Shown: positions 1 through 27,357, counted from the stretch's first letter. The stretch is 64,000 nt of DNA from Myxococcales bacterium (GCA_037446155.1 JBBIJE010000002.1:9171-73170), one strand, 5' to 3'. Numbers and translations: made by a program. Notes: a model not told the origin generated them from the letters alone.

Positions 1-129
1 TCCCGCACCGGCCGCCGCCGCGCCCTTAGCCTGCGCAGCCGAGCTTTGCGGGAACCTGAGGTTCGTGAGCGTAAGGGCGAGCAAGCCCACCGCCGTGTTG
101 CCCAAAAATTCTCGCCTCGTTAGGTTCAT
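1..129 (-). CDS. Tat-signal protein, N-terminal 43 codons only (gene runs off window start); last gene of the Mo-enzyme operon
   Basis: Reverse complement of 1-129 reads MNLTRREFLGNTAVGLLALTLTNLRFPQSSAAQAKGAAAAGAG: an n-region, an RREFL twin-arginine motif and a hydrophobic h-region. AGGGGG lies 6-12 nt upstream of the ATG. It starts 23 nt downstream of the alpha1 stop. Confidence 0.5.
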   Translation of the reverse strand, partial: MNLTRREFLGNTAVGLLALTLTNLRFPQSSAAQAKGAAAAGAG

Positions 130-152
130 CGTCTGGCGCCCCCTGCCTTTTC

Positions 153-3068
153 TCAGACTGCTGCCTTCTCCATCTCTACGGCCGCCCCGCGCGGGGCCAT
201 GACCGGCGCGGCGTAATAGAAGCGGTAGTGGAGCTGACCGTAATCCCCGACAAGGTGGAGCGGCTTCCAGGGGCAAGCGACCGGCTCCTGATTGCCCTGC
301 CAATTGCGGAACTGGTAGGGCTCCCAAGCGTGATACACGATCACCTGCCCGGGCTGCACCGCCGGTGAAACTTTTACCTGCACCTCGAAGCTTCCGACGT
401 CGTTATAGATTCTCGCCCGATCCCCGTCTTTTATTCCCCGCGCCGCGCAATCGGCCGCCGCCGCGTACGCCACCGGCTCGCCCCTCTGCAGCTTTAGCAT
501 GTAAGCGTCGTCTCGCCATATGGCGTGGATGCTCCAGCGGGTGTGGCCGCCCGTCAGGCGAAGGGGATAGTCCCCGCCGCTTCGAGGAAGCTCTTTGTGG
601 GTGGGCAAGGCCTCGCCCAGCTCCAGGAACCAGGGGTGGTCGATGTAGAACTGCTGCCTCCCCGTAAGGGTGGGCCAAGGTTGTTTTCCTTCCACGAACC
701 AGCGCGAGGGAACGACCGTCTCGCCCTCCTTGAAATCGCTTGCGGTTGCGCACGTTGGACCGAACGATCCCGTGCTCTTGATGGGAACCATGCCCTCCTT
801 CGCGGCTTTGCTCCAACTCGCGCCGCGCGTGACCTCGGAGTCGCGAAGGAGGCGGTCCAACACCCCGGTATCGTCCTCGGGGGGATGCTTGCCATGGTCG
901 CTCCAGCGGTCGAATATGCTTGCCAGGCTCCTTTTCTTGCCGAGCGCGTCGGTGTACCCGTCCACACCTCGCGCTAAAGCCTGCTCCTGGATCGCCTTGG
1001 CCAAAAGGCCGAATATCTCCCACTCCCCTTTCGACTCGAAGAGCGGCTCCACCGCCCGATCGCCTACGACCACGTAAGGCAGATAGCTCTGCAAGTATTT
1101 GATACCTCGCTTCTCGTAGTAACCGGCCGCGGGGAGCAGAAGATCGGCCTTGAGCCCACTAGTGCACATCCTGAAATTGACGTCAACGATCAGCCTAAGC
1201 CGCCGCCAAAGCTCCCGCTCGACCACCTGCGGAGCCGGCCAGCGCCGAAGCGGGTTCGCCCCGGTGAAAATGAATATCTCGGGGGCCTTGGGGGGCGAAG
1301 GGTAAACCGGCATCCAGCCCTTCTCGAGCGCCTCCTCGACGTACCGGCGAAAGGGGCGCCTCAGTGCGCCGTCGTGGCCAGCTTCACCGTCCAGCACCGA
1401 GGCCAGGCCCCCGTGGAGGTAGAGCCAAAGAAGCGAGGGGGAGAAAACGAGCTCCTTTTTCGATACCTCGGTGTAGATCTCCTCGAGCTCGCGGGCACCC
1501 AAGCTCACGAACTTTAGCAGGAGCCGCTGCCACCACGCTGGCTCGATCCCCGTAGCCCACCTGTCCCCTCCGCTCATCCCGTACCACGCCGCAAGTCGCA
1601 TCCCCCCTCCCGGCCTCCCCTGGTTGCCGGTCAGCGCCATGAGAAGGATCAAAGCCCTCTGCATGAGGTCGCTATGGTAGTATTTGCAAGCGCCCCAGGA
1701 TGCGAAAATCATCGCGGCGGGAGCCCTGGCCATCTCCCTGGCCATTTGCCGAATGAGGCCGGGGCCCACACCTGTTATCTTCGCCGCCTCCTCCGGGGTA
1801 TAGCGTGCCAGATGCGCCTCGAGAAGCGAAAAGACGGTCGAAACCTCCAGCTTGTCGCCGCTTGCGCCGACGACGGTGAACCTCCCCTCGAGCGCCGGAT
1901 CGAGCCCATCGAGTCCGAGCCTTCCCTTTCCCAGGCCTTTGGAGCCAGGGCTCGGCTCGAGTCCCTGCCTTGCGCGATCCCAGAGGTAGAAAACGTCCTC
2001 CTTCCCGCCCTTTTCGAGATCGGATTGGCGCAGGAAGCGTCCATTGTCCAGGCGCACGAGAAGTGGGAGATCGGTCTGCTCCTTGACGTAGGCAGCATCG
2101 TAGAGCCCCTCGGACACGATCACCTGGGCGAGCGCAAGCGCCAGCGCGGGATCAGTCCCGACCTTGGGATTGACCCAGAGATCGGCCCTGGTGGCGGTGG
2201 CGTTGTAATCGGGCGCTACCACCACGAGCTTGGCGCCGCGGTAGCGCGCCTCGAGCATGAAGTGGAGGTCGGGGATCCTGGTGTAGGAAGGATTGCCCAT
2301 CCAGACGACTATGTAGTCGGAATTGAACCAATCATCCGAGGTGCCCTCGACATTGAACATGCCCCAGGTTTGCACCGCACCGATGGCAAGGTCGCCCACG
2401 CCGGCGTAGGAATCGAGAAAAGTCGCCCCCAAGAGGCTGAAGAGCCACATCTCGCCCAAGCTTGCCGGCCCGACGTCCAAGTTGGAGGTGCCGTGATCGT
2501 ATATTATACATTCAGGCCCCCGCTTCTCGTCGGCGCACACATCGACGATCGCCTCCGCGACCTCCCGAAGCGCCTCCTCCCAAGTGATCCGCTTGAAGCG
2601 CCCCGATCCCCTGGGGCCCAGGCGTTTTAGGGGATACTTCAAGCGGCTTGCGCTGTAGCTCAGGGCGCTGTAGCAGGCTCCCTTCTGGCAGCCGCGCGGC
2701 GAGAAATCGGGGACGGCGGCATGGGATCTTCCGTACGATCCCCGCTGCTCCTCGCGCCAAACCAGGCCGTCGCGAACGAACACGTCCCAAGCACAGGCGC
2801 TGAAGCAGTTGGCGCGAAGATGGGTGCATCGTACCACGCGATCCCACTTCCACTTTTGCCGGTAAAGATCCTCCCAGGAGCGGTACTCGTACCCCTCTGC
2901 TGCTTGCGGCGCGGTTCCATCTGGCGGGGAGGCGAGGGCGGCAAGCCTGAGATTTACGAGGGAGAGGAAAACCGCCCCGGCCGCACCCGCCGCGAGAAAC
3001 TGGCGCCTGCTCAGCCGAGGCTCCACCACCCCTCCCCTTCCGCCCGCCGCCACCGGCTCGAGGCCCAT
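153..3068 (-). CDS. Molybdopterin (bis-PGD) oxidoreductase catalytic subunit, type II DMSO-reductase family, paralog alpha1, Tat-exported
   Basis: ORF 153-3131; likely start at MGLEP (3068). Tat motif SRRQFLAAGAAGAV. The YRSWEDLYRQKWKWD...THLRANCFSACAW motif is an H-x4-C-x3-C FS0-type cluster site (residues 104-113 of the 992-aa ORF, about 2793-2822). Molybdopterin-oxidoreductase-like sequence throughout. Highly similar to alpha3 (e.g. FASWGACKYYHSDLMQRALILLMALTGNQGRPGGG vs FASWGSCKHYHSDLMQRAMILLVALTGNQGKPGGG). Confidence 0.9.
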   Translation of the reverse strand: MGLEPVAAGGRGGVVEPRLSRRQFLAAGAAGAVFLSLVNLRLAALASPPDGTAPQAAEGYEYRSWEDLYRQKWKWDRVVRCTHLRANCFSACAWDVFVRDGLVWREEQRGSYGRSHAAVPDFSPRGCQKGACYSALSYSASRLKYPLKRLGPRGSGRFKRITWEEALREVAEAIVDVCADEKRGPECIIYDHGTSNLDVGPASLGEMWLFSLLGATFLDSYAGVGDLAIGAVQTWGMFNVEGTSDDWFNSDYIVVWMGNPSYTRIPDLHFMLEARYRGAKLVVVAPDYNATATRADLWVNPKVGTDPALALALAQVIVSEGLYDAAYVKEQTDLPLLVRLDNGRFLRQSDLEKGGKEDVFYLWDRARQGLEPSPGSKGLGKGRLGLDGLDPALEGRFTVVGASGDKLEVSTVFSLLEAHLARYTPEEAAKITGVGPGLIRQMAREMARAPAAMIFASWGACKYYHSDLMQRALILLMALTGNQGRPGGGMRLAAWYGMSGGDRWATGIEPAWWQRLLLKFVSLGARELEEIYTEVSKKELVFSPSLLWLYLHGGLASVLDGEAGHDGALRRPFRRYVEEALEKGWMPVYPSPPKAPEIFIFTGANPLRRWPAPQVVERELWRRLRLIVDVNFRMCTSGLKADLLLPAAGYYEKRGIKYLQSYLPYVVVGDRAVEPLFESKGEWEIFGLLAKAIQEQALARGVDGYTDALGKKRSLASIFDRWSDHGKHPPEDDTGVLDRLLRDSEVTRGASWSKAAKEGMVPIKSTGSFGPTCATASDFKEGETVVPSRWFVEGKQPWPTLTGRQQFYIDHPWFLELGEALPTHKELPRSGGDYPLRLTGGHTRWSIHAIWRDDAYMLKLQRGEPVAYAAAADCAARGIKDGDRARIYNDVGSFEVQVKVSPAVQPGQVIVYHAWEPYQFRNWQGNQEPVACPWKPLHLVGDYGQLHYRFYYAAPVMAPRGAAVEMEKAAV

Positions 3069-3167
3069 GTCTCGCCGGGCCGACAGCCGCCCAAGCTCGT
3101 CCCCTTCTCGCAAGCCCTTACCCCATCGCACCAGGGGCGAGCCGGCGCGATCGCGGCCCGGCCGGGA

Positions 3168-5363
3168 TCAGTACTCATACGTGCTCCAGTCGATCTCTTC
3201 CTCCTCCCGCGGCTGCACCACGAGATGAGCCTCCAGGTCGTCCACCGCCATCATGAAATCCGTGACCGCATCGATTCGCCGCTCCGGCTCGGGCACCTTC
3301 GGGTATCCATCGATATCGTAGAATACCAGCGGCATGCGGGTCTCCAAGCCCGCCACCTTCTTCGGATTGCGCAAAAACTCCCTCACCCACTCGGGCCTGA
3401 GCCGCTTCTTGGTAAGCGCCAGATTGATCGAAAGATCGTCCGGATCGACGTCTTTCGGCAGGCCCTGCTCGATCGAGGCCGGGTGGCACTGCATGCATTT
3501 GTTCACGCGAAACACGCTGGCGCCGAGCTCCACGTTGTGCTGGTCTATCTTGGCGGGATCGACCTTCACGTAGTGGCGGGATTCGACTCCGGCCGACGCC
3601 GAGAAGTAATCCACGAGCGCCTCCGCGCTCGCGTCGTCGAAGTCGAAGTTCGGCATCCTCACCTTGAGCCATGGGCGCAGGGCTTCGGGCTTTTTCAGGT
3701 ATTCGAAGAGCCACTGGGGCTGTACTCTCGCGCCCTCGCCGGTAAGCGTGGGCGGGGCCCAGGTCTTGCGCTCGACGAACTCCTTCATGTTGCCCCCCTC
3801 GCCCTCGATCTCGTGGCAGCCGCGGCAGTGCAGGTGTGCAACCATGAGCCTGCCGCGCAAGAGAGCCTCCGTAGCGGGAGTCGCCCTTATGGTATAGGCT
3901 GCCGGCATCTCGGATCCGTCGAAGCTCAGGACGTATGTGACCAGGGCGCGAACGTCCTCCTCGGAAAGTTTGACCACGGGCATCCTGAGCTTGATGTTCT
4001 CCCGCTCGTAGGCCCTGGGCTCCGCAAGCTTCTTTACCAGCCAGTCCCACTTCGTTCGCGGCACGCCTTTCACCTCGCCGAAATCGAGCTCTTCCACCGG
4101 CCGCGCCGCGAACTCGCTCAAGTCGGGAACGCTGAGCGGCGTCTTCTCGAATCCTTTGATCTCGTGGCAGCCGAAGCACTCCATCTTCTCGACGAGCTTT
4201 TTCCCCTTCTCGGGATCCCCTCCCTCGGTAAGCTTGGCGAAATCGGCGAGCTTCTCCTCCCCCTGCTTCTGCTCGGCCAGATAGGCCACGATGTCGCGCC
4301 GCTCCTCTTCCGTGAGCTCGAGCTTGGGCATCGGAGTGGCGGGGTTGTATTTTTTCGGGTCCGCGATCCAGCGATCCAACCATTCCACGCTGACCTTGAC
4401 CCCGATTCCAGCCAGATGGGGAACGCGCCGGCTGACGCTCTTGTCCTGCGGCTCGACCGCGTGGCAGCCGCGACACCCCTTTTCCTTGAAAAGATTCTCG
4501 CCCCGGCTCGAAGAGGCGCCCGCCAGCGATACGCTCTCGAGCGGCGGCTGCTCGGGCATGGTGTCCAGGAAAGCGAGGAGGTCCCTCACCTCGTCTTCTT
4601 TCAGGAAGAAGTGAGGCATCACGGTGTCCTCCTTCGCCTTGGTCGGATCGGACACCCACATGGCGAGCCAGCGGCGGTCCTCGATCTTTCCCTTTATCGT
4701 GGAAAGCGAGGGAGCGAATTTCGGCAGAGCGAGCTTGCGCGCGGTGCGGTGGCATCCCTCGCATCCCAGCTCGACGAAGCGAACCTCCCCCTTTGCGGCG
4801 ACCTCCGCTCCCGCCAGCCCCTGGACGATCTCGTGGCAGCGAGCGCACCTCGCCTGGGCGTACTTGACCGGCAACATGGGCTGGGTTCCCTCGCCCACCA
4901 GGCCGTGCGCCGCCTCCACCGTGCTCCCCACTCCGAGGCCTCCATGGCACACGGTACAGCCGAACCTCGCCACCTGATGGGTTTTGAGATAGTCGCCCGA
5001 GTGGCTGCGAAAGGGCTGGGGCTCGTCGGCGAAGAGCGGATTATCGGTCGCGGCATGGCAGGTCGTGCAGTGATCCACCGCGCCGATCGCCGGAACGTAG
5101 ATCTGTTTTAGCTCCTCCTTCATCCCCGCCGCTTCGGCCTTCAGGCGCTCCAGCTTGGCGACCTCTTTCTCGTCGCCGGCCTCCTTCGCTTCCGCCGCCT
5201 TCCGCTCGAGAAGCTCCAGGTATCTGGCGCGAAAGTCGCTCTGGTATTTTCGCCAAGGCGGAGCGGTTTCTCGCACCACCGCCAGGGCGCAGAGAAGAAG
5301 AAATAGCGGGCCCGCGATCCCCATCGTGAAACGCAGACCCGGACTCCCACGCATCAAGCGCAA
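3168..5363 (-). CDS. Membrane-anchored octaheme c-type cytochrome
   Basis: Eight CxxCH motifs (CTTCH, CTVCH, CARCH, CEGCH, CRGCH, CFGCH, CRGCH, CMQCH). N-terminal hydrophobic anchor MGIAGPLFLLLCALAVV. Sits between the cytochrome b genes and alpha1. Confidence 0.85.
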   Translation of the reverse strand: MRLMRGSPGLRFTMGIAGPLFLLLCALAVVRETAPPWRKYQSDFRARYLELLERKAAEAKEAGDEKEVAKLERLKAEAAGMKEELKQIYVPAIGAVDHCTTCHAATDNPLFADEPQPFRSHSGDYLKTHQVARFGCTVCHGGLGVGSTVEAAHGLVGEGTQPMLPVKYAQARCARCHEIVQGLAGAEVAAKGEVRFVELGCEGCHRTARKLALPKFAPSLSTIKGKIEDRRWLAMWVSDPTKAKEDTVMPHFFLKEDEVRDLLAFLDTMPEQPPLESVSLAGASSSRGENLFKEKGCRGCHAVEPQDKSVSRRVPHLAGIGVKVSVEWLDRWIADPKKYNPATPMPKLELTEEERRDIVAYLAEQKQGEEKLADFAKLTEGGDPEKGKKLVEKMECFGCHEIKGFEKTPLSVPDLSEFAARPVEELDFGEVKGVPRTKWDWLVKKLAEPRAYERENIKLRMPVVKLSEEDVRALVTYVLSFDGSEMPAAYTIRATPATEALLRGRLMVAHLHCRGCHEIEGEGGNMKEFVERKTWAPPTLTGEGARVQPQWLFEYLKKPEALRPWLKVRMPNFDFDDASAEALVDYFSASAGVESRHYVKVDPAKIDQHNVELGASVFRVNKCMQCHPASIEQGLPKDVDPDDLSINLALTKKRLRPEWVREFLRNPKKVAGLETRMPLVFYDIDGYPKVPEPERRIDAVTDFMMAVDDLEAHLVVQPREEEEIDWSTYEY

Positions 5364-5381
5364 GCGCTCACCTCCCCGTCG

Positions 5382-6110
5382 CTAGATGTTGAACCAGGGC
5401 GTCACCAAGAGGTAACGCACACTGAGAAAGATCCTGAGCAGCATTTTTATCGGCACCGCGTACATGAGGAGCGTCAGGACCATCACGGTGTAATAGCGCC
5501 CAGCTCCGAGTCCCTGTTTGAGCCACGGCCAGCGCCTGGCCGGAAGGGCGATTCCCAGGCCGAAATACAAGAGGAGCAGCGGCCCGCCCACCCACCAGGG
5601 AAAGCTCCACAGGCTCTCCTCGGCCGGCTTTACCACCTCCCAGCTTTCCCACGGCCAGTAGAACTGCCAATTGGGGCCGCGCAACACCTGTCCTATGGCA
5701 ATGAGAACCCACCAGAGAGCGAAACCGAAGAGGAAATGGGCGATGGCGAGCCGCCTGCCGGCGAACTGGTACCGGCCGACCCCGACGGTGCTGGTGTCGA
5801 GAAAGGGTATGATCATGAGGCCCACGATTATGAGAGTCGGCAAGACGACCCCGGCGAACCAGGGGTCGAAATAAACGAGAAGCTCTTGCAAGCCGACGAA
5901 GTACCAGGGAGCCTTGGCTGGGTTCTCCGTGCGGTTGGGATCGGCCATGGCGCGAAGCGGGGCGTTTTGCACGAGCGCCCACACCATGAGGCCGCAGCTA
6001 ACGATCAGCGCGGCCAAGAATTCTTTGTAAACGAGCTCCGGGAAGACCGCGACCCGCCCCGGCCCGAATCCCTCGTCGTCGATCCTGCCTTGCTCGTTGC
6101 GCTCGCTCAT
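5382..6110 (-). CDS. Cytochrome b C-terminal half (subunit IV / PetD-like) of a Rieske/cytochrome b complex
   Basis: Within ORF 5382-6449. Start MSERNEQ at 6110 overlaps the upstream stop as ATGA. Motif [19 protein letters not shown] matches the PEWY region of cytochrome b/subunit IV. Several predicted TM helices with a C-terminal extension. Confidence 0.8.
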
Positions 6111-6910
6111 AGCGGACAGGAAATCCCGCCGTCCTTTCTCACGCGCCAGAAGTGGATGAACATGAGAATGCCAGCGATCAGGGGGAGCGCCACGCAGTGC
6201 AGGACATAGAAGCGAAGCAGCGCGTTGCCCCCCACACGAACGTCTCCCAAAAGGAGAAAGCGCGCGTCGTTGGTGGGCGTTACCCCTAGGAATTCGTGGA
6301 AGGGGCCCTCGGCGCCGATAAAGGGCGTAGCCGCCGCCATGTTGGTGCCGACCGTGATCGCCCAAAACGCCAGTTGATCCCAGGGGAGGAGATAGCCGGT
6401 GAAGCTCAAAAGCAGCGTGAGCACGAGCAGCACGACGCCGACCACCCAATTGAACTCCCGCGGGGGCCGGTAAGAACCGGTAAGAAAAACCCTGAGCATG
6501 TGGAGCATGACGAGCAGGACCATGAGGTGCGCTCCCCAGCGGTGGAGATTTCTAAGCGGCACTCCGAAGAGCACCCCATGTTCTAGAACCAGCATGTCGA
6601 GATAGGCCCACTCGGGAGTGGGCCGGTAATAGAACATGAGATAAACGCCCGTTATCGTCTCCACGATGAAGAGAAAGAGCGCAAGCCCCCCCAAGCAGAA
6701 GGTAAACCGCACCTTGAGGGCGGCTTTGGGGAGGCTCACCGGGTGCAGATGCAGAAAGAAGTTGCTCGTTACCTCGAGCGCGCGGTTTCTCACCGTGTCG
6801 GCATAGCCGTGCCGGAGCACCGCGGTCACCGGCTGACTCTCGCGGATCTTGCGCCCGACGCGGCGCAACCGCTCGCCGAATCTCTCCCTCCTAGGTGCCG
6901 GCCTGCTCAT
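6107..6910 (-). CDS. Cytochrome b6-like N-terminal half (di-heme cytochrome b)
   Basis: [25 protein letters not shown] and [28 protein letters not shown] carry the conserved heme-ligand His pairs of the cytochrome b N-terminal domain. The gene is split from the subunit-IV-like piece as in b6f/b6c complexes. Confidence 0.85.
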
Positions 6911-6934
6911 TTTGCTCTCTCGTTCCTCATCCCC

Positions 6935-7300: not shown

Positions 7301-7313
7301 ATCAGTCTCCCGC

Positions 7314-7913
7314 TCAGCCGAGAAGAACGAACGAATCGGGGTGGTCGAAGCTATCCGCCTCGAACACCTTGCTTGTGTCCACTACCAACATGCCGCTCAA
7401 GTCGACGCCGATTTTGAGCCTCGGCAACGGCCGGGGCGCGGGCCCGGAAAAGTTGACGCCGTTGCTATGGTACTCGCTGCCGTGGCAGGGGCAGCGGAAC
7501 TGCCTCGCCGAGGCGAACCAGTTGACCGTGCAGCCTAGATGAGTGCAGCGGCCCGACATGGCGAAGATCCGATCCTGCTGCCGGACGACGAAAAACCGGT
7601 AGCGGCGCTTCCAGGTCTCGTCCACTTCGATCACCCCGTAGGCGTCGGGGGTCCCGCCCCGCATGAACTCCTCGGGCGCCCCGATCCTGAACGTGGTGGG
7701 GGGCTGGTAAAGCACTCGGGGGAAGAAAAAGCGCAGGGTCTCGATCCCCGCCACCCCCAAAGTGGCGATAAACCCACCCCATCCCGCCAGGGTGAGGCCG
7801 CTCAGCAGAAGCTCGCGCCTGGCAAGCGACTCTTTGGCGCCCTCGCCGGCCTCTCCCGGCCCGACCAAGGCGCGGATCACCTTCGCAGCCGCATCGTCCA
7901 GTGGCATGCGCAA
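7314..7913 (-). CDS. Rieske [2Fe-2S] iron-sulfur protein, Tat-dependent
   Basis: CTHLGC and CPCHGS Rieske boxes. Tat motif ARRELLLSGLTLAGWGG followed by a TM helix. Start lies 4 nt after the chaperone stop. Confidence 0.85.
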   Translation of the reverse strand: MRMPLDDAAAKVIRALVGPGEAGEGAKESLARRELLLSGLTLAGWGGFIATLGVAGIETLRFFFPRVLYQPPTTFRIGAPEEFMRGGTPDAYGVIEVDETWKRRYRFFVVRQQDRIFAMSGRCTHLGCTVNWFASARQFRCPCHGSEYHSNGVNFSGPAPRPLPRLKIGVDLSGMLVVDTSKVFEADSFDHPDSFVLLG

Positions 7914-7917
7914 CCCT

Positions 7918-8580
7918 CTACTCAGCGCGCTTTAGAAGTCCCTCCACCCAATTTCGGTCACGGGTCGTGAACCCGACGGTCAAGGAAACCAGATCGGCGA
8001 AAAACTGGAGCGGCTCCTGCTTCGCGAGCTTGGCTGCCATGAGCGGCAGCCATTTCACGACTTGCCGCTCCAGAAAATCCCGCGTAGCCCGCCTGAAAGC
8101 GCCGCAATCATGACCTGCGTGGAGCGCGCGCGTTTCGCAAAAACTCAGGTAATGGAGAAACTCGAGCTCGGTGGTCAAATGGTCGGGAAGCTCGCGCTGG
8201 GTGCTCGACAGAGACAGCCCGAAGTGGCTGTAGAACCGCATCACTTCCTCCATCACCCGCATTCTCGCTCGCCCGTAGTGTCCCCCGTAGAGCGGACAGG
8301 GCGGGCCGCCCACCCCGACGTCGAACAGGCGAATGTACTCGGCCTGGAAGTCGTCGTACGAACAGGTGGCCGAAAGGGCGCCAAGCTCCCCGAAGTCGTA
8401 GGGAAGACCGGCCAAGAGGCCGCCGAGCTCATCGCGCAGCGTACCGCCAGCGACCGACGCGTGAAATTCCTCGGTGGGAAACCGGAAGCAGGAGGCGAGC
8501 GCCGCGTACACTCGGCTTCTCGCCGCAGCCGCCCTCTCCTCTTCCCCGCTTAGATCCCTGATTTCCACGTTCACGTCCAT
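7918..8580 (-). CDS. TorD/NarJ/EbdD-family cofactor-insertion chaperone (delta subunit)
   Basis: About 220 aa, Tat-proofreading-chaperone-like, with LPDHLTTELEFLHYL resembling the TorD-family signature. Overlaps the beta gene stop by 10 nt. Confidence 0.75.
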   Translation of the reverse strand: MDVNVEIRDLSGEEERAAAARSRVYAALASCFRFPTEEFHASVAGGTLRDELGGLLAGLPYDFGELGALSATCSYDDFQAEYIRLFDVGVGGPPCPLYGGHYGRARMRVMEEVMRFYSHFGLSLSSTQRELPDHLTTELEFLHYLSFCETRALHAGHDCGAFRRATRDFLERQVVKWLPLMAAKLAKQEPLQFFADLVSLTVGFTTRDRNWVEGLLKRAE

Positions 8581-10964: not shown

Positions 10965-11164
10965 CGGCCGCTCTGATCGAACCCCAAATTTGCGAACGGC
11001 AAGCGCCCATTGCATCGGCCGCCCCGCTCCGTTTCGCCTTCCCGTCCCCTTCCATAATCGCGCGCGCTGCAGGCGGCGCGCAATCCCCCGATCGGGGTAG
11101 CCCGTACATGCTTTCGATGAGCAGGAGCGAACGTACGGTTACACTCTTCCATCGGCCGTCCGGG

Positions 11165-14100
11165 TCAGATCTTCTGCACGTCCACTGCAACGGCGCGGTC
11201 CGCTTGCTGGGGCTGCCAGTTCCATCTCCAATACTTAAGATGCCCGTAATCGCCGGCCAGGTGCAGCCACTTCACCATGCCCGGAATCGCCGCGTCGTAA
11301 GGTACCTGGCCCGGGAACTGGTAGGGCTCCCAGGCGTGGTAAATGATCAACTGCCCCGGCCGGGCGGAGGGGGCAAGCTTGACCGACACTTTGAAGGACG
11401 AAAAGTCGTTGAAGACCTTGACGACCTCTCCATCCTTTATCGCCTTCTTCTTGGCGTCCTCCGGATTCATGAACATGAAAGGCTGCCCCCGGTGCGTCAT
11501 GAGCAAAACCTTGTTCGTCACCCAGATCGAATGGATGCTCCAGCGCTGATGCCCGCTCGTCATCCGAAATGGATAGTTGCCCCCCATGGTCGGATTGGGC
11601 TTGTGTACGGGAAGCGCTTCGCCCGCTTCCAGGAACCAGTCGTGGTCTATGTAGAACTGCGCCCGCCTGGTGAGGGTCGGATACGGTATCTTCTTCTCCG
11701 TATGGAAGGTGAGGCAGGACACCGTCTCGTTCGGCTTTATGTCGCCCGCTACGTTCAAGCTCACGGGGTCGTATTTCCCGAGGCTCGTGAACCTGACGAA
11801 ACCATCTTTGCGGTATTTCGCCAGATTGGAGCCGGGGGGAAAGAGCCCTTCGCGCACGCTGTCCTCGGCGAAAAGCTCGAGCGCCTTTTCCATTTCATTT
11901 TCTTTTATCTGCTCGCCGTAGGTATAACGGGTGTAAATTCGATCGAAGCGGCGCGTCCTCCCCATGACCGCCCCCTGCCCTGGGAAGAGGGCGCGAACCA
12001 CTCGCTCCCCGATTTCGGTCTCGGCCAGCCGAGAAAGCAGCGCCCCCAAGGTTCCGCCCGCCATGCTGATCAGCGCCTTGGGAACCGGGCGGGTGCGTTT
12101 GTACTCCTCGAGCCCCTGCGCCTTGGCGCGCTCGCCTATCTTTTTCGCGAGGCGGCCGAAGATCTCGAACTCCGTGAGCGACTCGCCCAGCGGATCTACG
12201 GCCTTGTCGGTGAATGTGTTGAAGGTCACGTGCGGCGTGAAGAAGCGAAAATCCGGCCGCTCGTAGAACCAGGCGACCGGCAGGACGTAATCGGAGTAAA
12301 GTGCGGTCGTGCTCATGCGCGGATCCACGGTGACGATGAGCTTGAGCTTCGGCCAGAGGTTCTGGAGCAGTTGCTTGTACCCGCCTCTGGTTCTTCTCAA
12401 GGTGCTCCCCGCCAAGCCGAAGAGCACCTCCGGGGGCCGAGTGGGTTCCGGCAGCACGTACCCTTCCCACCAGCCCTTCTCCAGCGCCTCTTTGTAGTAG
12501 TCGTCGAAGGAGCGCTTCATGCTCGGATCCGACCACTCCTTCTTGTTCCACACCTCGCGGTAGCCGGCATGGTGGTACCAGTAGAAGACCGGCGGAACGG
12601 TCCCCACGAGCGAGCTCGTCAAGCGGTCCCGCTCGATGGCGACCATCTCGTCGGTCATGGTAGGATCCTGGGCGCGGATTTTCTCGTTGAGGTCGTCCAT
12701 CAGCTTCGCCAGGCGCTCGTATTCCTCGACGGTGGCGACATTTCGGCCGAAGGTGAACTCCTTGGGGTCCCCCGATTCGTTCCAACCGCGGTTGCCGGTC
12801 CCCTTCTTCCCCCAGTTTCCGGTAAGACCGAGCAGCAGAGCCATCGAGCGCTCCATCAAGTCGCCATGGTAGTATTTATTGGAGTTCCAGCCCATGAGAA
12901 CGTTCGTCCGCTTGCTCGCTACCTTCTTGGCGAGCAGGCGAATGATCTGGGGGGAGGTCCCGCAGAGTTGCGAGGCCTGCTCGGGCGTGTAAGCCTTGAG
13001 ATGCTCCTTGAGAAGAGCGAATACCGGCTCCACCGTCACTTCCTTGCCGTCTTGCAGCTTGACCTGGACCGTGCCCTCCAGGGCCGGATCCACCCCTTCG
13101 AGCTCGAGCGTCGCCCGTGGCGCCTGCACGATCTTGCCCGACTTGGCGTCGAGAAAATAAAACTGGTCGTTGCGCCCGCCGCTTTCGAGATCGCTTTGGC
13201 GCAAGAACTTCTTGGTGTCCCTCCTGACCAGAAGGGGCAGGTCGGTTTGCTCCTTCACGAAGGCGGCGTTGTGGAGATTCTCGGTTACGATGACGTTGCA
13301 CATGCCGAGCGCCAGGGCGGCGTCGCAGCCGAAATTCACCGGCACGTAGAGATCGGCATGGATGCTGGATGCGTTGTAATCGGGCGCGATGCTCACCACC
13401 TCGGCACCATGGTAGCGACCCTCGGTAATGTAGTGGGCACCGGGTATCCTCGTATAGACGGGATTCATGTGCCATATCAGCGTAAGCTCCGCGTGGAACC
13501 AGTCGTCCTGGGAGCTGCAATGCTGGAACTTCCCGTAGGTTATGTAATTGCCGACGTTGAAGTCCCCGATGAGAGCGTCCACGTCGAGGGTCGTCGCACC
13601 CAGCGTGGTGGCGAAGCGGCCGACGCTGAGGGCCTGGAAGATGCCGATGTTCCCCGGCCCCATCTCGAATACGATCGACTCGGGCCCCTTCTCCTTGATG
13701 GTCGAGATCATTTGATCGGCTATGTCCGTCAGCGCCTCGTCCCAGCTCACCCTCTTCCACTTGCCCTGGCCGCGCTCGCCCACGCGCTTTAGCGGGTAGA
13801 GCACGCGCTCGGCACCGTAGGTGACTTTGCTGAAGGAGGCTCCCTTCTGGCAGCCTCTGGGATTCATGTCGGGCACGCCCGGTTCTATCACCGGATAGCG
13901 GGCCTGCTGCTCCTCCCTCAGTATCAGCCCGTCACGCACATATACGTGCCAGGCGCAGTTGCCCGGGTAGCAATCGACGCAGTGCGTGCCCTTCGTGACC
14001 TTGTCCCAGCGCCACTTCTCCCGGTAGAGATCCTCCCAGGAGCGGTAGGTGTAGCCCTGCGGCCCTACCACCGCCTCTTCGGCCACGGATGCGCGCGGCC

Positions 14101-14179
14101 TTAGCGATGTAAGCGAGAGCGCGAGCATTGTGGTGCCTGTTACCTTGAGGAAATCCCGCCGCGTGAACAACACTCCCAT
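11165..14179 (-). CDS. Molybdopterin oxidoreductase catalytic subunit, paralog alpha2 (divergent), Tat-exported
   Basis: Tat motif TRRDFLKVTGTTMLALSL. YRSWEDLYREKWRWDKV then THCVDCYPGNCAW (H-C-x2-C-x4-C, about 13955-13984) differs from the H-x4-C-x3-C of alpha1 and alpha3. 1004 aa. Molybdopterin-oxidoreductase-like sequence throughout. Confidence 0.9.
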   Translation of the reverse strand: MGVLFTRRDFLKVTGTTMLALSLTSLRPRASVAEEAVVGPQGYTYRSWEDLYREKWRWDKVTKGTHCVDCYPGNCAWHVYVRDGLILREEQQARYPVIEPGVPDMNPRGCQKGASFSKVTYGAERVLYPLKRVGERGQGKWKRVSWDEALTDIADQMISTIKEKGPESIVFEMGPGNIGIFQALSVGRFATTLGATTLDVDALIGDFNVGNYITYGKFQHCSSQDDWFHAELTLIWHMNPVYTRIPGAHYITEGRYHGAEVVSIAPDYNASSIHADLYVPVNFGCDAALALGMCNVIVTENLHNAAFVKEQTDLPLLVRRDTKKFLRQSDLESGGRNDQFYFLDAKSGKIVQAPRATLELEGVDPALEGTVQVKLQDGKEVTVEPVFALLKEHLKAYTPEQASQLCGTSPQIIRLLAKKVASKRTNVLMGWNSNKYYHGDLMERSMALLLGLTGNWGKKGTGNRGWNESGDPKEFTFGRNVATVEEYERLAKLMDDLNEKIRAQDPTMTDEMVAIERDRLTSSLVGTVPPVFYWYHHAGYREVWNKKEWSDPSMKRSFDDYYKEALEKGWWEGYVLPEPTRPPEVLFGLAGSTLRRTRGGYKQLLQNLWPKLKLIVTVDPRMSTTALYSDYVLPVAWFYERPDFRFFTPHVTFNTFTDKAVDPLGESLTEFEIFGRLAKKIGERAKAQGLEEYKRTRPVPKALISMAGGTLGALLSRLAETEIGERVVRALFPGQGAVMGRTRRFDRIYTRYTYGEQIKENEMEKALELFAEDSVREGLFPPGSNLAKYRKDGFVRFTSLGKYDPVSLNVAGDIKPNETVSCLTFHTEKKIPYPTLTRRAQFYIDHDWFLEAGEALPVHKPNPTMGGNYPFRMTSGHQRWSIHSIWVTNKVLLMTHRGQPFMFMNPEDAKKKAIKDGEVVKVFNDFSSFKVSVKLAPSARPGQLIIYHAWEPYQFPGQVPYDAAIPGMVKWLHLAGDYGHLKYWRWNWQPQQADRAVAVDVQKI

Positions 14180-14198
14180 CGACTCTTACCTCCCTTGC

Positions 14199-17066
14199 CT
14201 AGGTCCTGATCCTCTCCACCTCGACCGCCGTCGCCCTGGGCGTGTGGCTCGGCTGCGCGAGGAAAGTACGGTAGTGGAGCTGGCCGTAGTCGCCGACCAG
14301 GTGGAGAGGCTTCCAGGGCGAAGCCACGACTTCTTGGTTACCCTGCCACTTCGGGAACTGATAGGGCTCCCAGGCGTGGTAAACGACAACCTGGCCCGGC
14401 TGCAGCGTGGGCGTTACCTTGGCCCTGGCGGAGAAGCTCCCCACGTCGTTGTAGATCCTGACCCTGTCATGGTCGGAGATACCGCGAGCCTTGGCGTCCG
14501 AAGAGCCGATGTAAATTACCGGCTCGCCCCGCTGAAGCTGCAGCATAAAACGCTGGTCGCGCCAGATGGCGTGTATGCTCCAGCGGGTGTGGCCTCCCGT
14601 CAGGCGAAGCGGGTAATCCCCCCCCGCCAGAGGGGGGGGCTTGTGCGTGGGAAGGGCCTCCCCGAGTTCCAGATACCAGTCGTGATCGATCAAAAACTGC
14701 TGTCTTCCGGTGAGAGTCGGCCAGGGCTGTTTCCCCTTCACGAACCACTGCGAAGGAGAGACCGGCTCGCCCTCGATAAGATCGCTGCAAACCGCGTCGA
14801 TGCCGCTGTAGCGCCCGGTGCTCTTGATCTTGATTACCCCGAGCTTTCGCGCCTCGCTCCAGTTCGTGCCCGCCGTAACGGGAGACTCCTCGAGGATATA
14901 CTCCATCGGCTTCGCGTCATCCCCCGGCGCCCACTCCCCTCCCTTGCTCCACTCCTCGTAGATGGCCGTGAGATCGTGGCGATTGCCGAAGACGTCGGTG
15001 ACCTCGCGGATTCCCGCCTTCTCGGCCTGCTCGGCGATTTTTCGCGCCAAGAGCCCCGAGACCTCCCACTCCCCTTTGGATTCGAACAGCGGATCGACCG
15101 CCCGATCCCCGATCACGACATAGGGCAGGTAGGTCTGAGTGAACTTGATGCCGATCTTCTCGTAATAGCCTGCGGCGGGCAAAATGATGTCCGAGTAAAG
15201 GCCGGTCGTGGACATCCGAAAGTTTATGCTCACCGCCAGGTCGAGCTTGGGCCAGAGAACTTCGCGCGCGACCTGCGGCGTCGGCCAGCGCCTAAGCGGG
15301 TTGAGCCCGCTGAAGATATAGAGCTTCGGAGATTTGCCGTTGCGCGGATAAAAGGGCATCCAGCCCTTTTCGTCCGCCTCTCTTGCGTATTCGGAAAATG
15401 GCCGCTTGAGCGCCGGATCGTTGAATTCGGGGCGGCTTACCACCTTGTCGAAGCCGCCATGGTGGTAGAGGCTATAGAGCACGGAGGTGTAGGCGTAGCG
15501 CTCCCTCACCAGGCGGGTAAAGAATCCCTCGAAGTCCCTAACCGTCGGCTTGGCCATGCCGATGAGAAAGCGATCGATGAGGCTCAAGTCGTAAGCGTTG
15601 GCCATCCGCTCGAATCCCTCGAGGCTCCACCACGCTCCGATCCTCAATCCCCCGCCCGGCTTTCCCTGGTTGCCAGTGAGCGCCACCAAAAGGATCATCG
15701 CGCGTTGCATGAGGTCGCTATGGTAATGCTTACATGAACCCCAGGAGGCGAAGATCATGGCGGAGCGCGCCTCGGCGAACTCGCGGCCGAGCTGCCGGAT
15801 GAGCTTTGCGTCGATCCCGGTCTGCCGACCAGCGAGCTCCGGCGTGAAATTGGCGTCAAGGTGCTCCCGCAGGACCTCGAAAACCGGCCGGACCTCGACC
15901 TTTCGGCCGTCGGCGAGCTCCACCGTGAAGCGGCCCTCGAGCGCGGGTTTTCGCGTGTAGAGTTTCAAATTGCCGCGCTTTAGGCCCTCGCTTCCCGGTG
16001 CTCGGGCGAGTTCGTTGTTGCTCGAGTCCCAGAAGTAGAAGACGTTTTCCGCGCCTTTCCTCTCCACATCCGACTCGCGCAAGAACTTCTTGGTGTCCTG
16101 GCGCACGAGAAGCGGCAAATCGGTTTGTTCGCAGACGTACTCGCGATCGTAGAGACCCTCGGCAATGATTACCTGTGCGGCCCCGAGGGCGAGCGCGGCG
16201 TCGCTTCCGACCCTGGGATTGAGCCACAGGTCGGCGTGGATGGCGGTGGCGTTGTAATCAGGTGCAACCACCACCAACTTGGCGCCGCGATAGCGTGCCT
16301 CGAGCATGTAGTGCATCTCCGGTATTCGCGTGTAAACCGGGTTGCCGAGCCAAACCACGATGTAATCGGACCTGAACCAATCGTCCGAAGTCCCGTCCAC
16401 GTTGAACATGCCCCAGGTTTGGATGGCGCCCATCGGCAGGTCGCCGACCCCAGCCCAGGAATCGAGGAAGGTCACCCCGAGCAGGCTAAAGAGCCGCTGC
16501 TCCCCTCCCGTGCTCGGGCCGAAATCCACGTTGGTCGTTCCGTGATCGTACCAGATGCACTCGGGTCCCTCCTTGGCCGCGACCTCCACGAGCTTGCGTG
16601 CGATCTCCTCCAGCGCCTCGTCCCACGATACCCGCTTCCATTTCGCGGAGCCTCGCGGCCCCAGCCGCTTGAGCGGGTACTTGATGCGACTCGGACTGTA
16701 CATGAGGTCGCTGTAGCAGGCGCCCTTTTGGCATCCTCGCGGGCCGAAGTCGGGAATTTGCGGGTTGGTCTGCGCGTAGCGTCCGGATTGCTCCTCCCGC
16801 CAGACGATCCCATCCTTGACGTAGAGGTCCCACGCGCACGCGGCGATGCAGTCGGTCCGCAGGTGGGTGCCTCGTACCACTTTGTCCCAGCGCCACTTCT
16901 CGCGGTAGAGGTCCTCCCAGGAAGCATAGTCGTAGCCGTCGACGATCCTCCCGCCGCTTGCGCTTTGCTCGGCGCGCGCCTCCCGGGACACCTCCAGGTA
17001 GTGCAGGCAGAGCGCAAGGCCGGCTGCCGCCCCCGCCGCTTTCAGAAACTCTCTTCGGCTCAGCAC
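14199..17066 (-). CDS. Molybdopterin oxidoreductase catalytic subunit, paralog alpha3, Tat-exported
   Basis: Tat motif SRREFLKAAGAAAGLAL. YASWEDLYREKWRWDKVVRGTHLRTDCIAACAW (H-x4-C-x3-C, about 16836-16865). 955 aa. Closest to alpha1. Sits 20 nt upstream of alpha2. Confidence 0.9.
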   Translation of the reverse strand: MLSRREFLKAAGAAAGLALCLHYLEVSREARAEQSASGGRIVDGYDYASWEDLYREKWRWDKVVRGTHLRTDCIAACAWDLYVKDGIVWREEQSGRYAQTNPQIPDFGPRGCQKGACYSDLMYSPSRIKYPLKRLGPRGSAKWKRVSWDEALEEIARKLVEVAAKEGPECIWYDHGTTNVDFGPSTGGEQRLFSLLGVTFLDSWAGVGDLPMGAIQTWGMFNVDGTSDDWFRSDYIVVWLGNPVYTRIPEMHYMLEARYRGAKLVVVAPDYNATAIHADLWLNPRVGSDAALALGAAQVIIAEGLYDREYVCEQTDLPLLVRQDTKKFLRESDVERKGAENVFYFWDSSNNELARAPGSEGLKRGNLKLYTRKPALEGRFTVELADGRKVEVRPVFEVLREHLDANFTPELAGRQTGIDAKLIRQLGREFAEARSAMIFASWGSCKHYHSDLMQRAMILLVALTGNQGKPGGGLRIGAWWSLEGFERMANAYDLSLIDRFLIGMAKPTVRDFEGFFTRLVRERYAYTSVLYSLYHHGGFDKVVSRPEFNDPALKRPFSEYAREADEKGWMPFYPRNGKSPKLYIFSGLNPLRRWPTPQVAREVLWPKLDLAVSINFRMSTTGLYSDIILPAAGYYEKIGIKFTQTYLPYVVIGDRAVDPLFESKGEWEVSGLLARKIAEQAEKAGIREVTDVFGNRHDLTAIYEEWSKGGEWAPGDDAKPMEYILEESPVTAGTNWSEARKLGVIKIKSTGRYSGIDAVCSDLIEGEPVSPSQWFVKGKQPWPTLTGRQQFLIDHDWYLELGEALPTHKPPPLAGGDYPLRLTGGHTRWSIHAIWRDQRFMLQLQRGEPVIYIGSSDAKARGISDHDRVRIYNDVGSFSARAKVTPTLQPGQVVVYHAWEPYQFPKWQGNQEVVASPWKPLHLVGDYGQLHYRTFLAQPSHTPRATAVEVERIRT

Positions 17067-17731
17067 GCCTCCGAGACCTCCTGCCTCCCGGGAATCAAAG
17101 CGGCTTGGAAGAACCGCAAGGTTTCTTGCTTGATCCGCGCCACGCCCTGTGGCCCGAATGCATCGGAAAGCCAGGCCGGGGCCAGCATGGGCGCCGAAAT
17201 GAACGAGAAAATCACGATACCCATCACGGCGATGATGAGAAACATCGGGTCCCCACGCCTGAAAACCCTGGCGTCTTGCCCTTGAGAGATGAAATCTGTG
17301 ATGGCCTCGATTATGGGCCTGGCATGCTCTGCGAGCGTGCGTCCCAGCTCTTCTTCCTGATCCAGCGCCGCCCGCACGAGCATGTGAGCCCTTCCCGGGT
17401 GCGTCGCGACGGATTCTATGTAGGTCTCGATAAGCTTGAGAAGCCGCTCCTCGAAGGAGAGGCTCCCGGAAATCGCGCCGCGAATCTTATCCTCGAGTTC
17501 CCGGGTGGCGCGGTCGGTTACCTCTTCGTATATGCTCTGCTTGTTCTTGAAGTGGTGAAAGAGCGAGGCCTTGCGGATCCCCACTTTCGCGGCCAGTTTC
17601 TGAAGGCTGGTCCCATGGTAGCCGTGCGCTGCGAACATTTCCTCGGCGGTCTTGAGGATCGCTTCGCGGGTATCGGCGCGGCCTCTGCGTCTTGGCCGTT
17701 TTACCGGCCTGCTTTCGTCGACGTTAAGCAT
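17060..17731 (-). CDS. TetR/AcrR-family transcriptional regulator
   Basis: N-terminal HTH TREAILKTAEEMFAAHGYHGTSLQKLAAKVGIRKASLFHHFKNKQ. Start MLNVDES at 17731 (ORF extends to 17782). Its stop overlaps the alpha3 start by about 7 nt. Confidence 0.85.
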   Translation of the reverse strand: MLNVDESRPVKRPRRRGRADTREAILKTAEEMFAAHGYHGTSLQKLAAKVGIRKASLFHHFKNKQSIYEEVTDRATRELEDKIRGAISGSLSFEERLLKLIETYIESVATHPGRAHMLVRAALDQEEELGRTLAEHARPIIEAITDFISQGQDARVFRRGDPMFLIIAVMGIVIFSFISAPMLAPAWLSDAFGPQGVARIKQETLRFFQAALIPGRQEVSEAC

Positions 17732-17982
17732 GCTAACCTTCCTACCGGTCGGGAGGGTAGATTGTAAAGGGCGACGCGTCATCCAAGAATGTGATTTTTG
17801 TCAGTTTTTTCGACGGGCCTCTCCGCGCAAGAAAAACGGCGGCGGCGGACCGAGCCGACTATCGAGCCCAGCCAGACTGCCCCCCCGTCGGGCCAGCGAA
17901 GAGGCGAAGCGCCAGCCAGGGCTGGTCCGCGGAGCGCCGTCCCCTGGTGCCGCCCAGGCCCGCCTGCTAAGTACCCAAACCC

Positions 17983-27350: not shown

Positions 27351-27357
27351 GCCATCC

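Follow-up and report, generated by a model that had tools for sequence, protein, structure and literature searches.

A four-alpha type II molybdenum-enzyme operon that contains its own Rieske/cytochrome b6/octahaem genes

Gene content and layout of the operon

The stretch of DNA considered here, 64,000 nucleotides (nt) from a Myxococcales bacterium (GCA_037446155.1, JBBIJE010000002.1:9171-73170; hereafter the window), begins with an operon-like block in which the genes for a molybdenum (Mo) enzyme of the type II dimethyl sulphoxide (DMSO) reductase family surround genes for a Rieske/cytochrome b system. On the minus strand, from position 17782 to the window start, 14 closely packed genes run in the same direction, their families assigned with Pfam and NCBIfam (Table 1). 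In the order of transcription they encode a TetR regulator, the catalytic subunits alpha3 and alpha2, a membrane anchor, the gamma and beta subunits, the chaperone delta, a Rieske protein, a ferredoxin-like protein, cytochrome b6, a subunit-IV-like protein, an octahaem cytochrome c, alpha1 and alpha4. The genes from the Rieske to the octahaem gene are referred to below as the bc genes or bc module. All the genes that a first-pass annotation of the sequence had placed on this strand are present where it put them.

Table 1. Features of the operon and of the genes just upstream, in window coordinates (aa, amino acids; Tat, twin-arginine translocation)
Feature	Position	Strand	Family matches and remarks
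alpha4, N-terminus, 43 codons	1..129	-	Tat motif TRREFL; cut by window start; translation MNLTRREFLGNTAVG
alpha1, molybdopterin catalytic subunit, 957 aa	153..3026	-	PF00384, PF01568; Tat signal; subfamily I
Octahaem cytochrome c, membrane-anchored, 731 aa	3168..5363	-	Pfam Cytochrom_C in four stretches; c7/NrfB-like matches
Subunit-IV-like C-terminal half of split cytochrome b, 242 aa	5382..6110	-	PF00032
Cytochrome b6-type subunit, 267 aa	6107..6910	-	PF00033
2[4Fe-4S] ferredoxin-like protein, 121 aa	6935..7300	-	Fer4 family matches
Rieske [2Fe-2S] subunit	7314..7907	-	PF00355; N-terminal transmembrane/Tat anchor
delta, TorD/NarJ-type assembly chaperone	7918..8580	-	PF02613, TIGR03482
beta, NarH-type four-cluster iron-sulphur subunit, 372 aa	8571..9689	-	TIGR03478, Fer4_11
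gamma, EbdC-type haem b subunit, 219 aa	9751..10410	-	PF09459 (EB_dh)
Membrane anchor, cytochrome b561/FdnI-like, 187 aa	10401..10964	-	PF01292, 34.6 bits (cut-off 30.1)
alpha2, EbdA-like catalytic subunit, 1004 aa	11165..14179	-	TIGR03479; Tat signal; subfamily III
alpha3, catalytic subunit, 955 aa	14199..17066	-	TIGR03479; Tat signal; subfamily I
TetR-family regulator, first gene of the unit	17060..17782	-	PF00440, TetR_C_29
TatA/B/E-family protein, just upstream of the unit	18392-18700	-	PF02416
TatA/B/E-family protein, just upstream of the unit	18831-19073	-	PF02416
DUF364/DUF4213 protein ('putative heavy-metal chelation'), upstream of the TetR gene	19194-20570	-	
Crp/FNR-family regulator, upstream of the unit	20024-20881	-	

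Gene starts were refined against the gene calls on near-identical contigs before the junctions were measured. In transcription order the junctions are -7, 19, 200, -10, 61, -10 and 10 nt down to delta/Rieske, and 13, 24, -4, 18, 141 and 23 nt thereafter; at least 9 of the 13 are overlaps or gaps of no more than 24 nt. The anchor gene overlaps the start of the gamma gene by 10 nt, and the cytochrome b6 and subunit IV genes are joined by an ATGA overlap (the -4 junction). The tight spacing and the 200-nt gap described in the first-pass annotation thus stand, but that gap is not the only long one if alpha1 starts at the GTG of its Tat motif, the start that the gene callers picked on its relatives, which leaves 141 nt ahead of it.

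Only 10 nt separate the delta stop codon from the Rieske gene, and there is therefore no space at that point for a terminator and a promoter, which the first-pass annotation had named as evidence that would count against a single unit. A consensus scan detected no terminator-like or promoter-like site in any of the intergenic gaps, with site counts equal to the shuffled expectation, the promoter consensus being of the sigma-70 type, so that internal promoters of other types would escape it. Nor do the 200-nt and 141-nt gaps show better predicted folding than shuffled sequence. In addition, the bc genes of the window lineage are flanked on both sides by Mo-enzyme genes. Because of the short junctions, the lack of any promoter-like or terminator-like site between the genes, and this flanking arrangement, the 14-gene region appears to be one transcription-unit-like block, with the Rieske, cytochrome b and octahaem genes inside it as originally proposed. 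The whole unit, including alpha4, is about 20.7 kb long; the 17.8 kb first given as its length is the part inside the window.

The catalytic alpha subunits

The last gene of the block, previously described as another Tat-signal protein, is the N-terminus of a fourth alpha subunit. The fragment matches the N-terminus of a 954-aa molybdopterin protein that follows alpha1 on L114 (12925-15789), a contig with 93% DNA identity to the window. The genes that come after alpha4 on L114 lie on the opposite strand, and the operon therefore ends after alpha4. All four alphas carry RR motifs in their N-termini.

The model for type II members of the DMSO reductase family (TIGR03479, cut-off 985 bits) is matched by alpha3 at 1005.9 bits and by alpha2 at 999.6 bits, while alpha1, at 956 bits, falls just under the cut-off. 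The alphas are quite diverged from one another: identity is 61% between alpha1 and alpha3, 39-40% between alpha2 and either of these, and 43-47% between alpha4 and the others. A neighbour-joining tree separates a subfamily I (alpha1 and alpha3), a subfamily II (alpha4) and a subfamily III (alpha2 with EbdA); its only references were EbdA (rebuilt from the alignment), ClrA and Haloferax pNarG, full-length or nearly so, and the tree is to be read as indicative. The alphas thus belong to old subfamilies and did not arise by a recent triplication. The word 'triplicated' in the first-pass annotation has to give way to four alphas in three subfamilies that are 39-61% identical, and the sharing of one beta-gamma pair by several alphas is known from steroid C25 dehydrogenase (S25DH; PMC6016249).

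Compared with chains in the PDB, alpha2 scores 836 bits with EbdA (2ivf_A) and 504 with PcrA. The corresponding scores are 615 and 561 bits for alpha1, and 643 and 620 bits for alpha3. In the trimmed alignment alpha2 is 44% identical to EbdA, and it retains the Mo-ligand Asp (EbdA Asp223), Lys450 and the FS0 motif H-x3-C-x4-C...C. On these comparisons alpha2 is the only alpha that is clearly EbdA-like. An earlier placement of the whole set in the Ebd/Ser/Clr/C25DH branch therefore holds for alpha2, which goes with Ebd, but is not supported for alpha1 and alpha3, which are nearly equidistant from EbdA and PcrA. Many subfamily-I alphas come from Binatia genomes. One protein that groups with alpha1 and alpha3 (P0293, 54% identical to alpha1) bears the Joint Genome Institute (JGI) product name 'steroid C-25 hydroxylase alpha subunit'.

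Canonical NarG or NxrA (NarGHJI, NXR) was considered for these subunits and rejected on account of the scores, the lengths of 955-1004 aa and the Tat signals: the narG model TIGR01580 gives 294-348 bits against a cut-off of 1084, and among PDB chains NarG gives 257-304 bits and NxrA 158-164 bits, compared to 615-836 bits for EbdA. The view that the alphas lie outside NarG/NxrA is accordingly borne out. Nor do the subunits match ethylbenzene dehydrogenase (EBDH) proper: the scores with the EbdA, EbdB, EbdC and EbdD models are far under their equivalog cut-offs, and alpha2 lacks the EbdA residue His192. For EbdA, with a cut-off of 2000 bits, the scores are 895 (alpha2), 681 (alpha3) and 640 (alpha1).

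Beta, gamma, delta and the membrane anchor

For the beta, gamma and delta subunits the type II subfamily models of NCBIfam rank first and the Ebd models next. Beta exceeds the cut-off of TIGR03478 (524.6 against 480.7 bits) and reaches 460 of the 740 bits set for EbdB. Delta likewise exceeds that of TIGR03482 (179 against 152 bits), with 116 against 360 for EbdD. Gamma is well above the cut-off of PF09459 (112 against 33 bits), slightly under that of TIGR03477 (157 against 170) and at 161 against 400 for EbdC. Together with two of the three alphas in TIGR03479, these matches support the assignment, already made from the sequence, of an alpha-beta-gamma-delta composition typical of periplasmic type II enzymes of the DMSO reductase family. 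In an alignment to 2ivf_C, gamma retains the haem ligands Met108 and Lys201, and the motif is kept across loci. The EbdC haem, with its Met/Lys ligation, has a high potential.

The anchor has three helices by hydropathy (residues 29-47, 65-83 and 141-159), and a fourth probably lies around His103. Four of its histidines (His28, His66, His139 and His153, in the numbering of a 204-aa open reading frame, ORF) are invariant in 18 homologues, and their spacing matches that of His 18/57/155/169, which we take to be the haem ligands of FdnI. The anchor is therefore best read as a putative di-haem transmembrane cytochrome b of the FdnI type. A PDB sequence search with the anchor gave no match, and a single-sequence AlphaFold2 model of it was unusable (predicted local distance difference test, pLDDT, 49.5). 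The anchor may serve as a membrane tether or as a second link to quinone.

The Rieske/cytochrome b6/octahaem module

The cluster-binding boxes of the Rieske subunit are CTHLGC and CPCHGSEY, and these are kept across loci. The Ser and Tyr of the second box occupy positions reported to raise the potential of the cluster (PMC3509893). The cytochrome b6-type subunit has two pairs of haem-ligand histidines (123/137 and 238/253). Its closest solved relatives are the b6 subunits of b6f complexes, and its Cys72 aligns with Cys35 of b6, the site of haem ci. The subunit-IV-like protein has about five predicted transmembrane helices, some two of them extra at the C-terminus. It carries APWY in place of the Qo motif PEWY/PDWY; the same variant is found in all related loci and in Binatia homologues, except for AAWY in L044.

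The octahaem cytochrome c consists of a transmembrane helix (residues 12-30), four close-set CxxCH motifs resembling c7/NrfB, and four class-I cytochrome c domains. Its CxxCH motifs, at residues 99, 136, 173, 201, 297, 396, 513 and 623, are kept eight out of eight in every related locus. Taken together, the module encodes a complete b6-type Rieske/cytochrome b complex with the octahaem cytochrome as its c subunit. An alternative complex III was also considered and rejected, since there are no ActB/ActC-type genes and a genuine Rieske/cytochrome b pair is present instead.

The remaining member of the module is the ferredoxin-like protein. It contains two Cys clusters, lacks both a signal peptide and a predicted transmembrane helix, and looks cytoplasmic. 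Copies that are 56-62% identical lie between the Rieske and b6 genes in every bc-linked locus that reaches this position (L023, L114, L033-L035, L038, L039, L045, L046, L051 and L052). A PDB search with the protein gave only weak, generic 2[4Fe-4S] matches. It may be a partner of haem ci on the N side of the membrane.

As a separate observation, cytochrome b6 scores 267.6 bits, just under a cut-off of 290, with the NCBIfam model of ExtP, a b-type cytochrome of the Geobacter selenite/tellurite ext cluster, and the octahaem protein has a weak ExtS match. These matches suggest that there may be a wider family of b6-type modules joined to periplasmic redox systems.

Conservation of the linkage in other loci

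L023 and L114, which were assembled independently and belong to the same lineage, have exactly the gene order of the window. Searching metagenomes with beta yielded 80 loci. In a clade with 74-78% identical beta subunits, the bc genes lie beside TetR-anchor-gamma-beta-delta on 11 contigs from wetland, peat and sediment metagenomes (L033-L036, L038, L039, L044-L046, L051 and L052). The usual order on these contigs is Rieske-ferredoxin-b6-subunit IV-octahaem-TetR-anchor-gamma-beta-delta, and L033 has the order of the window. Where a related locus extends far enough to show it, a TetR homologue almost always precedes the anchor-gamma-beta-delta genes, the exception being L052, in which none was detected; on L036 the octahaem gene, at the contig end, is the only one of the bc module. 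The genes on the flanks differ from locus to locus (radical SAM, restriction-modification, GlmS, AcrB, FeoB and MoaA). In the beta tree the bc-linked loci all belong to a single clade, in which the window lineage branches deeply as the sister of the others. The linkage proposed in the first-pass annotation is thus found again in L023, in L114 and in 11 rearranged metagenome loci. Its retention in these 11 further loci despite rearrangement strengthens the case for functional coupling.

The alphas behave quite differently from this set of genes. No alpha-like sequence (E<0.1) was found in the 12 loci examined, which extend up to 21 kb each. Conversely, on L115 (a Binatia genome) and on L116 subfamily-I alphas stand as orphans, with neither beta nor gamma; the neighbours on L116 are a thiolase, a CoA (coenzyme A) ligase and a protein resembling 3-beta-hydroxysteroid dehydrogenase (3-beta-HSD). 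In a subclade of the beta tree (L040, L043, L048 and L049) an alpha gene follows delta. The bc genes are absent near L043 and L049; the contigs of L040 and L048 end too soon to show whether they are present. Beta relatives at a greater distance lie in clusters of the ordinary alpha-(anchor)-gamma-beta-(alpha)-delta kind, in which the number of alphas per gamma-beta pair reaches six, on L024.

From this pattern the conserved unit is TetR/anchor/gamma/beta/delta plus the bc module, with alphas that are exchangeable and often encoded elsewhere. Such a platform could act as a common socket for several plug-in alphas, a reading based on the alpha-less loci, the orphan alphas, the six alphas per gamma-beta pair and the precedent of S25DH. 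A MoaA-type gene (Radical_SAM plus Mob_synth_C) lies right after delta in the alpha-less core of L041 (3880-5268), which fits a core serving Mo enzymes encoded elsewhere.

The octahaem cytochrome and the b subunits also have relatives in other settings. L025, L053 and L035 encode, right after delta or alpha, a cytochrome c of 460-485 aa that is homologous to octahaem residues 315-731, and on L025 and L053 it is present without bc genes. This recurrence beside beta-gamma-delta suggests that gamma docks to the class-I domains. In Binatia genomes a cytochrome b6 gene (61-62% identical) stands ahead of genes for subunit IV and an octahaem cytochrome, and Rieske, ferredoxin and Mo-enzyme genes are absent from the vicinity. 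A scan of genome contigs with the octahaem protein matched Binatia genomes only, at about 32% identity and without Mo-enzyme genes.

Two of the metagenome loci carry additional redox genes near the core. On L033 the octahaem gene is followed, on the same strand and at a distance of about 2.7 kb, by a second and more divergent Rieske-cytochrome b6 pair (18362-19688), 39% and 62% identical to the proteins of the window, so that this organism has two adjoining bc modules. On L052, about 7 kb past the downstream end of the alpha-less core, a 559-aa ORF (18941-20620) joins three domains in an unusual combination: cytochrome b (PF00033), 4Fe-4S dicluster and MvhD/FlpD-like.

Genes upstream of the operon and the host

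The operon encodes at least five Tat-dependent proteins and lies beside a pair of TatA/B/E-family genes (Table 1), which are possibly accessory export components for the Tat-dependent subunits. The arrangement of this pair with the DUF364/DUF4213 gene recurs on L023. A 144-aa ORF (17983-18417, plus strand) is oriented divergently to the TetR gene, and at the same position on L023 the gene callers also placed a gene of 144 aa. It is one of four ORFs with coding-like GC content at the third codon position (GC3) and no Pfam match, the others being 27316-28035 (+), 28131-28928 (-) and 39237-40556 (-). The long ORF of the Crp/FNR-family regulator has an N-terminal C-x2-C-x8-C plus further Cys residues, recalling the oxygen-sensing cluster of FNR; for the copy on L023 the gene callers picked a shorter start, which drops this Cys extension.

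Further genes directly upstream encode an enoyl-CoA hydratase, a short-chain dehydrogenase, a zinc-dependent alcohol dehydrogenase, a xylose-isomerase-like TIM-barrel protein and an acyl-CoA ligase. Three genes with no assigned catabolic role separate these from the genes for a second enoyl-CoA hydratase and a 3-hydroxyacyl-CoA dehydrogenase farther upstream. The remainder of the window is housekeeping in character (UvrD, PurA, FtsK, RNase J, LolA and SSB). The presence of LolA and of an outer-membrane efflux protein argues for a diderm cell with a periplasm. The host is an uncultured bacterium from soil or sediment. The nearest named relatives of PurA, 68-69% identical, are from genomes labelled 'Deltaproteobacteria bacterium' and 'Candidatus Binatia'. 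An Rfam scan of the whole window gave no match (no rRNA and no tRNA).

Direction of electron flow

The physical supercomplex of the Mo enzyme and the bc complex that the first-pass annotation proposed is an inference, and so is any direction of electron flow. The oxidative direction, that is, oxygen-independent hydroxylation, is favoured with a probability of roughly 0.55. It is favoured because alpha2 is EbdA-like and the multi-alpha and orphan-alpha pattern is that of hydroxylases, and because a TetR gene and genes for alcohol, CoA-ester and beta-oxidation enzymes adjoin, with no chlorite dismutase or nitrite reductase. Regulation by a TetR protein is a usual feature of operons that serve the catabolism of hydrophobic compounds. 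An organic substrate is also suggested by the JGI product name of the subfamily-I relative and by the thiolase, CoA ligase and 3-beta-HSD-like neighbours on L116.

In the hydroxylase model, the alphas would oxidise hydrophobic organic substrates in the periplasm, hydroxylating them with water. [quoted passage not shown] The latter would also accept electrons from the Rieske centre, making it a shared wire for hydroxylase and quinol electrons, and would deliver them to terminal oxidases or reductases whose genes lie elsewhere. Alcohols formed by the alphas could then be taken on by the enzymes encoded next door (alcohol dehydrogenase, short-chain dehydrogenase, enoyl-CoA hydratase and CoA ligase). 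The potentials appear to match, in that the Rieske box CPCHGSEY has the potential-raising Ser and Tyr and gamma has the Met/Lys ligation of the EbdC haem. Aerobic chains with complex IV have been reported in Binatota genomes (PMC8262859).

Several observations weigh against this model. The window contains no terminal oxidase or terminal reductase. The ferredoxin is conserved and yet has no role in the scheme, and a di-haem FdnI-like anchor fits poorly with a purely oxidative flow combined with a high-potential gamma haem. At the position of EbdA His192, which we take to be the proposed catalytic residue of ethylbenzene dehydrogenase alongside Asp223 and Lys450, alpha2 has a Pro. The scores of alpha1 and alpha3 with PcrA and EbdA are nearly equal, and in the trimmed alignment these two are 39-41% identical to haloarchaeal pNarG and 36-37% to EbdA. 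The range of identities between the alphas and Haloferax pNarG is 36-41%. Finally, every described case of Rieske/cytochrome b genes inside a Mo-enzyme cluster is a quinol-fed reductase (PMC3509893, PMC5317091; the Haloferax mediterranei pNar cluster was compared here as L112).

Much of this evidence counts for a reductase, which we regard as unlikely but well worth weighing. Here electrons would run as in pNar, from quinol through Rieske/b6 (where a Q-cycle would conserve energy) to the octahaem cytochrome, gamma, beta and the alphas, and so to high-potential acceptors such as nitrate, chlorate, perchlorate, selenate, iodate or similar, with one specificity per alpha; the b561 anchor would be a second, non-conserving point of quinol entry. 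The described clusters and the PcrA-like and pNarG-like scores of alpha1 and alpha3 speak for this direction, and the FdnI-type anchor suits flow from quinol to the enzyme better than the reverse. PhsABC provides a precedent for a di-haem FdnI-type anchor that passes quinol electrons outward, and Met/Lys-ligated haem b is also found in Ser/Clr-type reductases. The gate residues of PcrA give a divided answer: alpha3 keeps Trp461, but has Ser and Trp at Phe164 and Tyr165. Against a reductase stand the higher score of alpha2 with EbdA than with PcrA, the alcohol, CoA-ester and beta-oxidation genes and the TetR gene nearby, and the thiolase and CoA ligase genes that adjoin orphan alphas. No chlorite dismutase, nitrite reductase or oxyanion transporter was found near the operon, whereas a chlorate cluster (L113) carries cld. 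The four to six alphas per beta-gamma pair also follow the S25DH pattern, unlike known oxyanion reductases.

Two other readings concern the bc module itself. It might operate in reverse, with the proton-motive force driving hydroxylation electrons from gamma and the octahaem cytochrome through Rieske/b6 into the quinone pool, perhaps with a low-potential electron that may come from the 2[4Fe-4S] protein via haem ci (a confurcating reverse Q cycle). Hydroxylation could then proceed without a high-potential terminal acceptor. Reverse operation of bc complexes is established in iron and nitrite oxidisers. It has also been discussed for Nitrospina (PMC3578206). In favour of reversal, the bc complex is dedicated and co-inherited with beta-gamma-delta, with a second Rieske-b6 pair adjoining on L033; a ferredoxin that lacks a signal peptide is consistently encoded between the Rieske and b6 genes; the haem-ci Cys is present; and the Qo motif APWY is unusual. 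The complex IV chains of Binatota imply that high-potential acceptors are probably at hand (PMC8262859), and the Binatia b6-subunit IV-octahaem modules without Mo-enzyme genes or ferredoxin fit an ordinary forward complex III, so that reverse operation seems distinctly improbable. That the ten-gene core (TetR, anchor, gamma, beta and delta with the five genes of the bc module) is a dedicated energy converter rather than a simple wire, running a reverse and possibly ferredoxin-assisted Q cycle through haem ci, is to be considered quite improbable. It would be very improbable indeed that the bc genes are a general complex III that happens to adjoin a Mo-enzyme cluster. Such a coincidence might be suspected from the bc modules that stand alone in Binatia, from L043 and L049, which belong to the same beta clade and have no bc genes nearby, and from the ordinary clusters of the distant beta relatives. 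However, 13 loci besides the window have the linkage, and among them there are two gene orders and flanks that have nothing in common. The bc genes of the window lineage are enclosed by Mo-enzyme genes, at junctions that are 10-24 nt wide or overlap by 4 nt. Even in the absence of bc genes, beta-gamma-delta can have beside it a cytochrome c homologous to the C-terminal half of the octahaem protein. This conserved pattern argues strongly against mere adjacency.

Significance for water-based hydroxylation

To our knowledge, enzymes resembling EBDH and S25DH are the only route to hydroxylation of unactivated C-H bonds with water. The joint inheritance of a beta-gamma core, a particular bc complex and a cytochrome c of several domains offers a concrete, testable candidate for the physiological electron partner. 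If one electron-transfer platform serves many alphas, this would bear on the prediction of hydrocarbon, sterol and isoprenoid turnover from wetland, peat and sediment metagenomes, and a single beta-gamma-delta chassis could be engineered to carry many alphas. A ferredoxin gene within a b6-type complex that has the haem-ci Cys is also a lead on the role of haem ci outside photosynthesis. Should the reverse Q cycle be real, a whole set of plug-in hydroxylases could run without a high-potential terminal acceptor.

Comparison with known systems

The closest described system is the haloarchaeal Rieske/cytochrome b-NAR cluster. It was reportedly described in Haloferax mediterranei and Haloarcula marismortui by Martinez-Espinosa in 2007, Yoshimatsu in 2007 and Baymann in 2012. 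Work on this pNar between 2007 and 2012 established a type II enzyme with an EbdC-like gamma, a TorD-like delta and its own Rieske/cytochrome b genes (PMC3509893). The two systems share a periplasm-facing type II enzyme with an alpha, a NarH-type beta, an EbdC-related haem b protein, a TorD-type chaperone, the Rieske/cytochrome b pair and an adjoining TetR gene. The haloarchaeal cluster has a single pNarG, 33-41% identical to the alphas described here, and an unsplit cytochrome b of 485 aa; it lacks a c-type cytochrome, a ferredoxin and a b561 anchor, and it works reductively from quinol to nitrate. The window, in contrast, has four alphas of other subfamilies, a split b6/subunit IV with the haem-ci Cys, the octahaem cytochrome, the ferredoxin and the di-haem anchor.

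Other precedents share the association with a Rieske/cytochrome b complex. In the Nap cluster of Caldithrix abyssi the Rieske/cytochrome b genes lie inside the cluster, and a multihaem cytochrome c has been proposed as the link (PMC5317091); that cluster differs in having NapA, of another Mo-enzyme family, no gamma haem b, a single catalytic subunit and a reductive direction. A Rieske/cytochrome b complex with multihaem cytochromes has also been proposed to feed Nar in Methanoperedens. The principle of a Mo enzyme with its own Rieske/cytochrome b is thus already known, and the suggestion in the first-pass annotation that the fusion is new fails at that level, given the haloarchaeal and Caldithrix precedents. 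For the particular combination, no description of an EBDH/S25DH-like core with a b6-type complex and octahaem cytochrome, or of an alpha-less core, was found in the literature, of which the subscription part was incompletely covered.

The individual parts each have recognisable counterparts. The module shares with b6f and the Firmicute-type b6c complexes the split cytochrome b, the four His ligands, the haem-ci Cys and the Rieske boxes. It differs in having APWY rather than PEWY, a long subunit IV, a 731-aa octahaem c and a ferredoxin gene; neither the PEWY motif nor a cytochrome f/c1-type subunit that would mark a b6f-like complex is present. With the FdnI/PhsC anchors (PF01292), that of the window shares four invariant His residues, their FdnI-like spacing and a gene position beside the electron-transfer subunits of a periplasmic Mo enzyme, but it would dock to the haem b gamma rather than directly to beta.

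Among the hydroxylases, EbdABCD of Aromatoleum aromaticum (PDB 2ivf) shares with the window the FS0 motif, the Mo-ligand Asp, Lys450 and the gamma ligands Met108 and Lys201. It is a soluble enzyme with a single alpha, and the alphas, beta, gamma and delta of the window score far under its equivalog cut-offs. EBDH probably passes its electrons to a separate cytochrome c. The S25DH of Sterolibacterium denitrificans is periplasmic, hydroxylates with water and has eight alpha paralogues on fewer beta-gamma pairs, with no linked Rieske/cytochrome b complex, anchor or multihaem cytochrome reported (PMC6016249). What it has in common with the system described here is an excess of alphas over beta-gamma pairs, at a ratio of 4:1 in the window lineage and 6:1 on L024.

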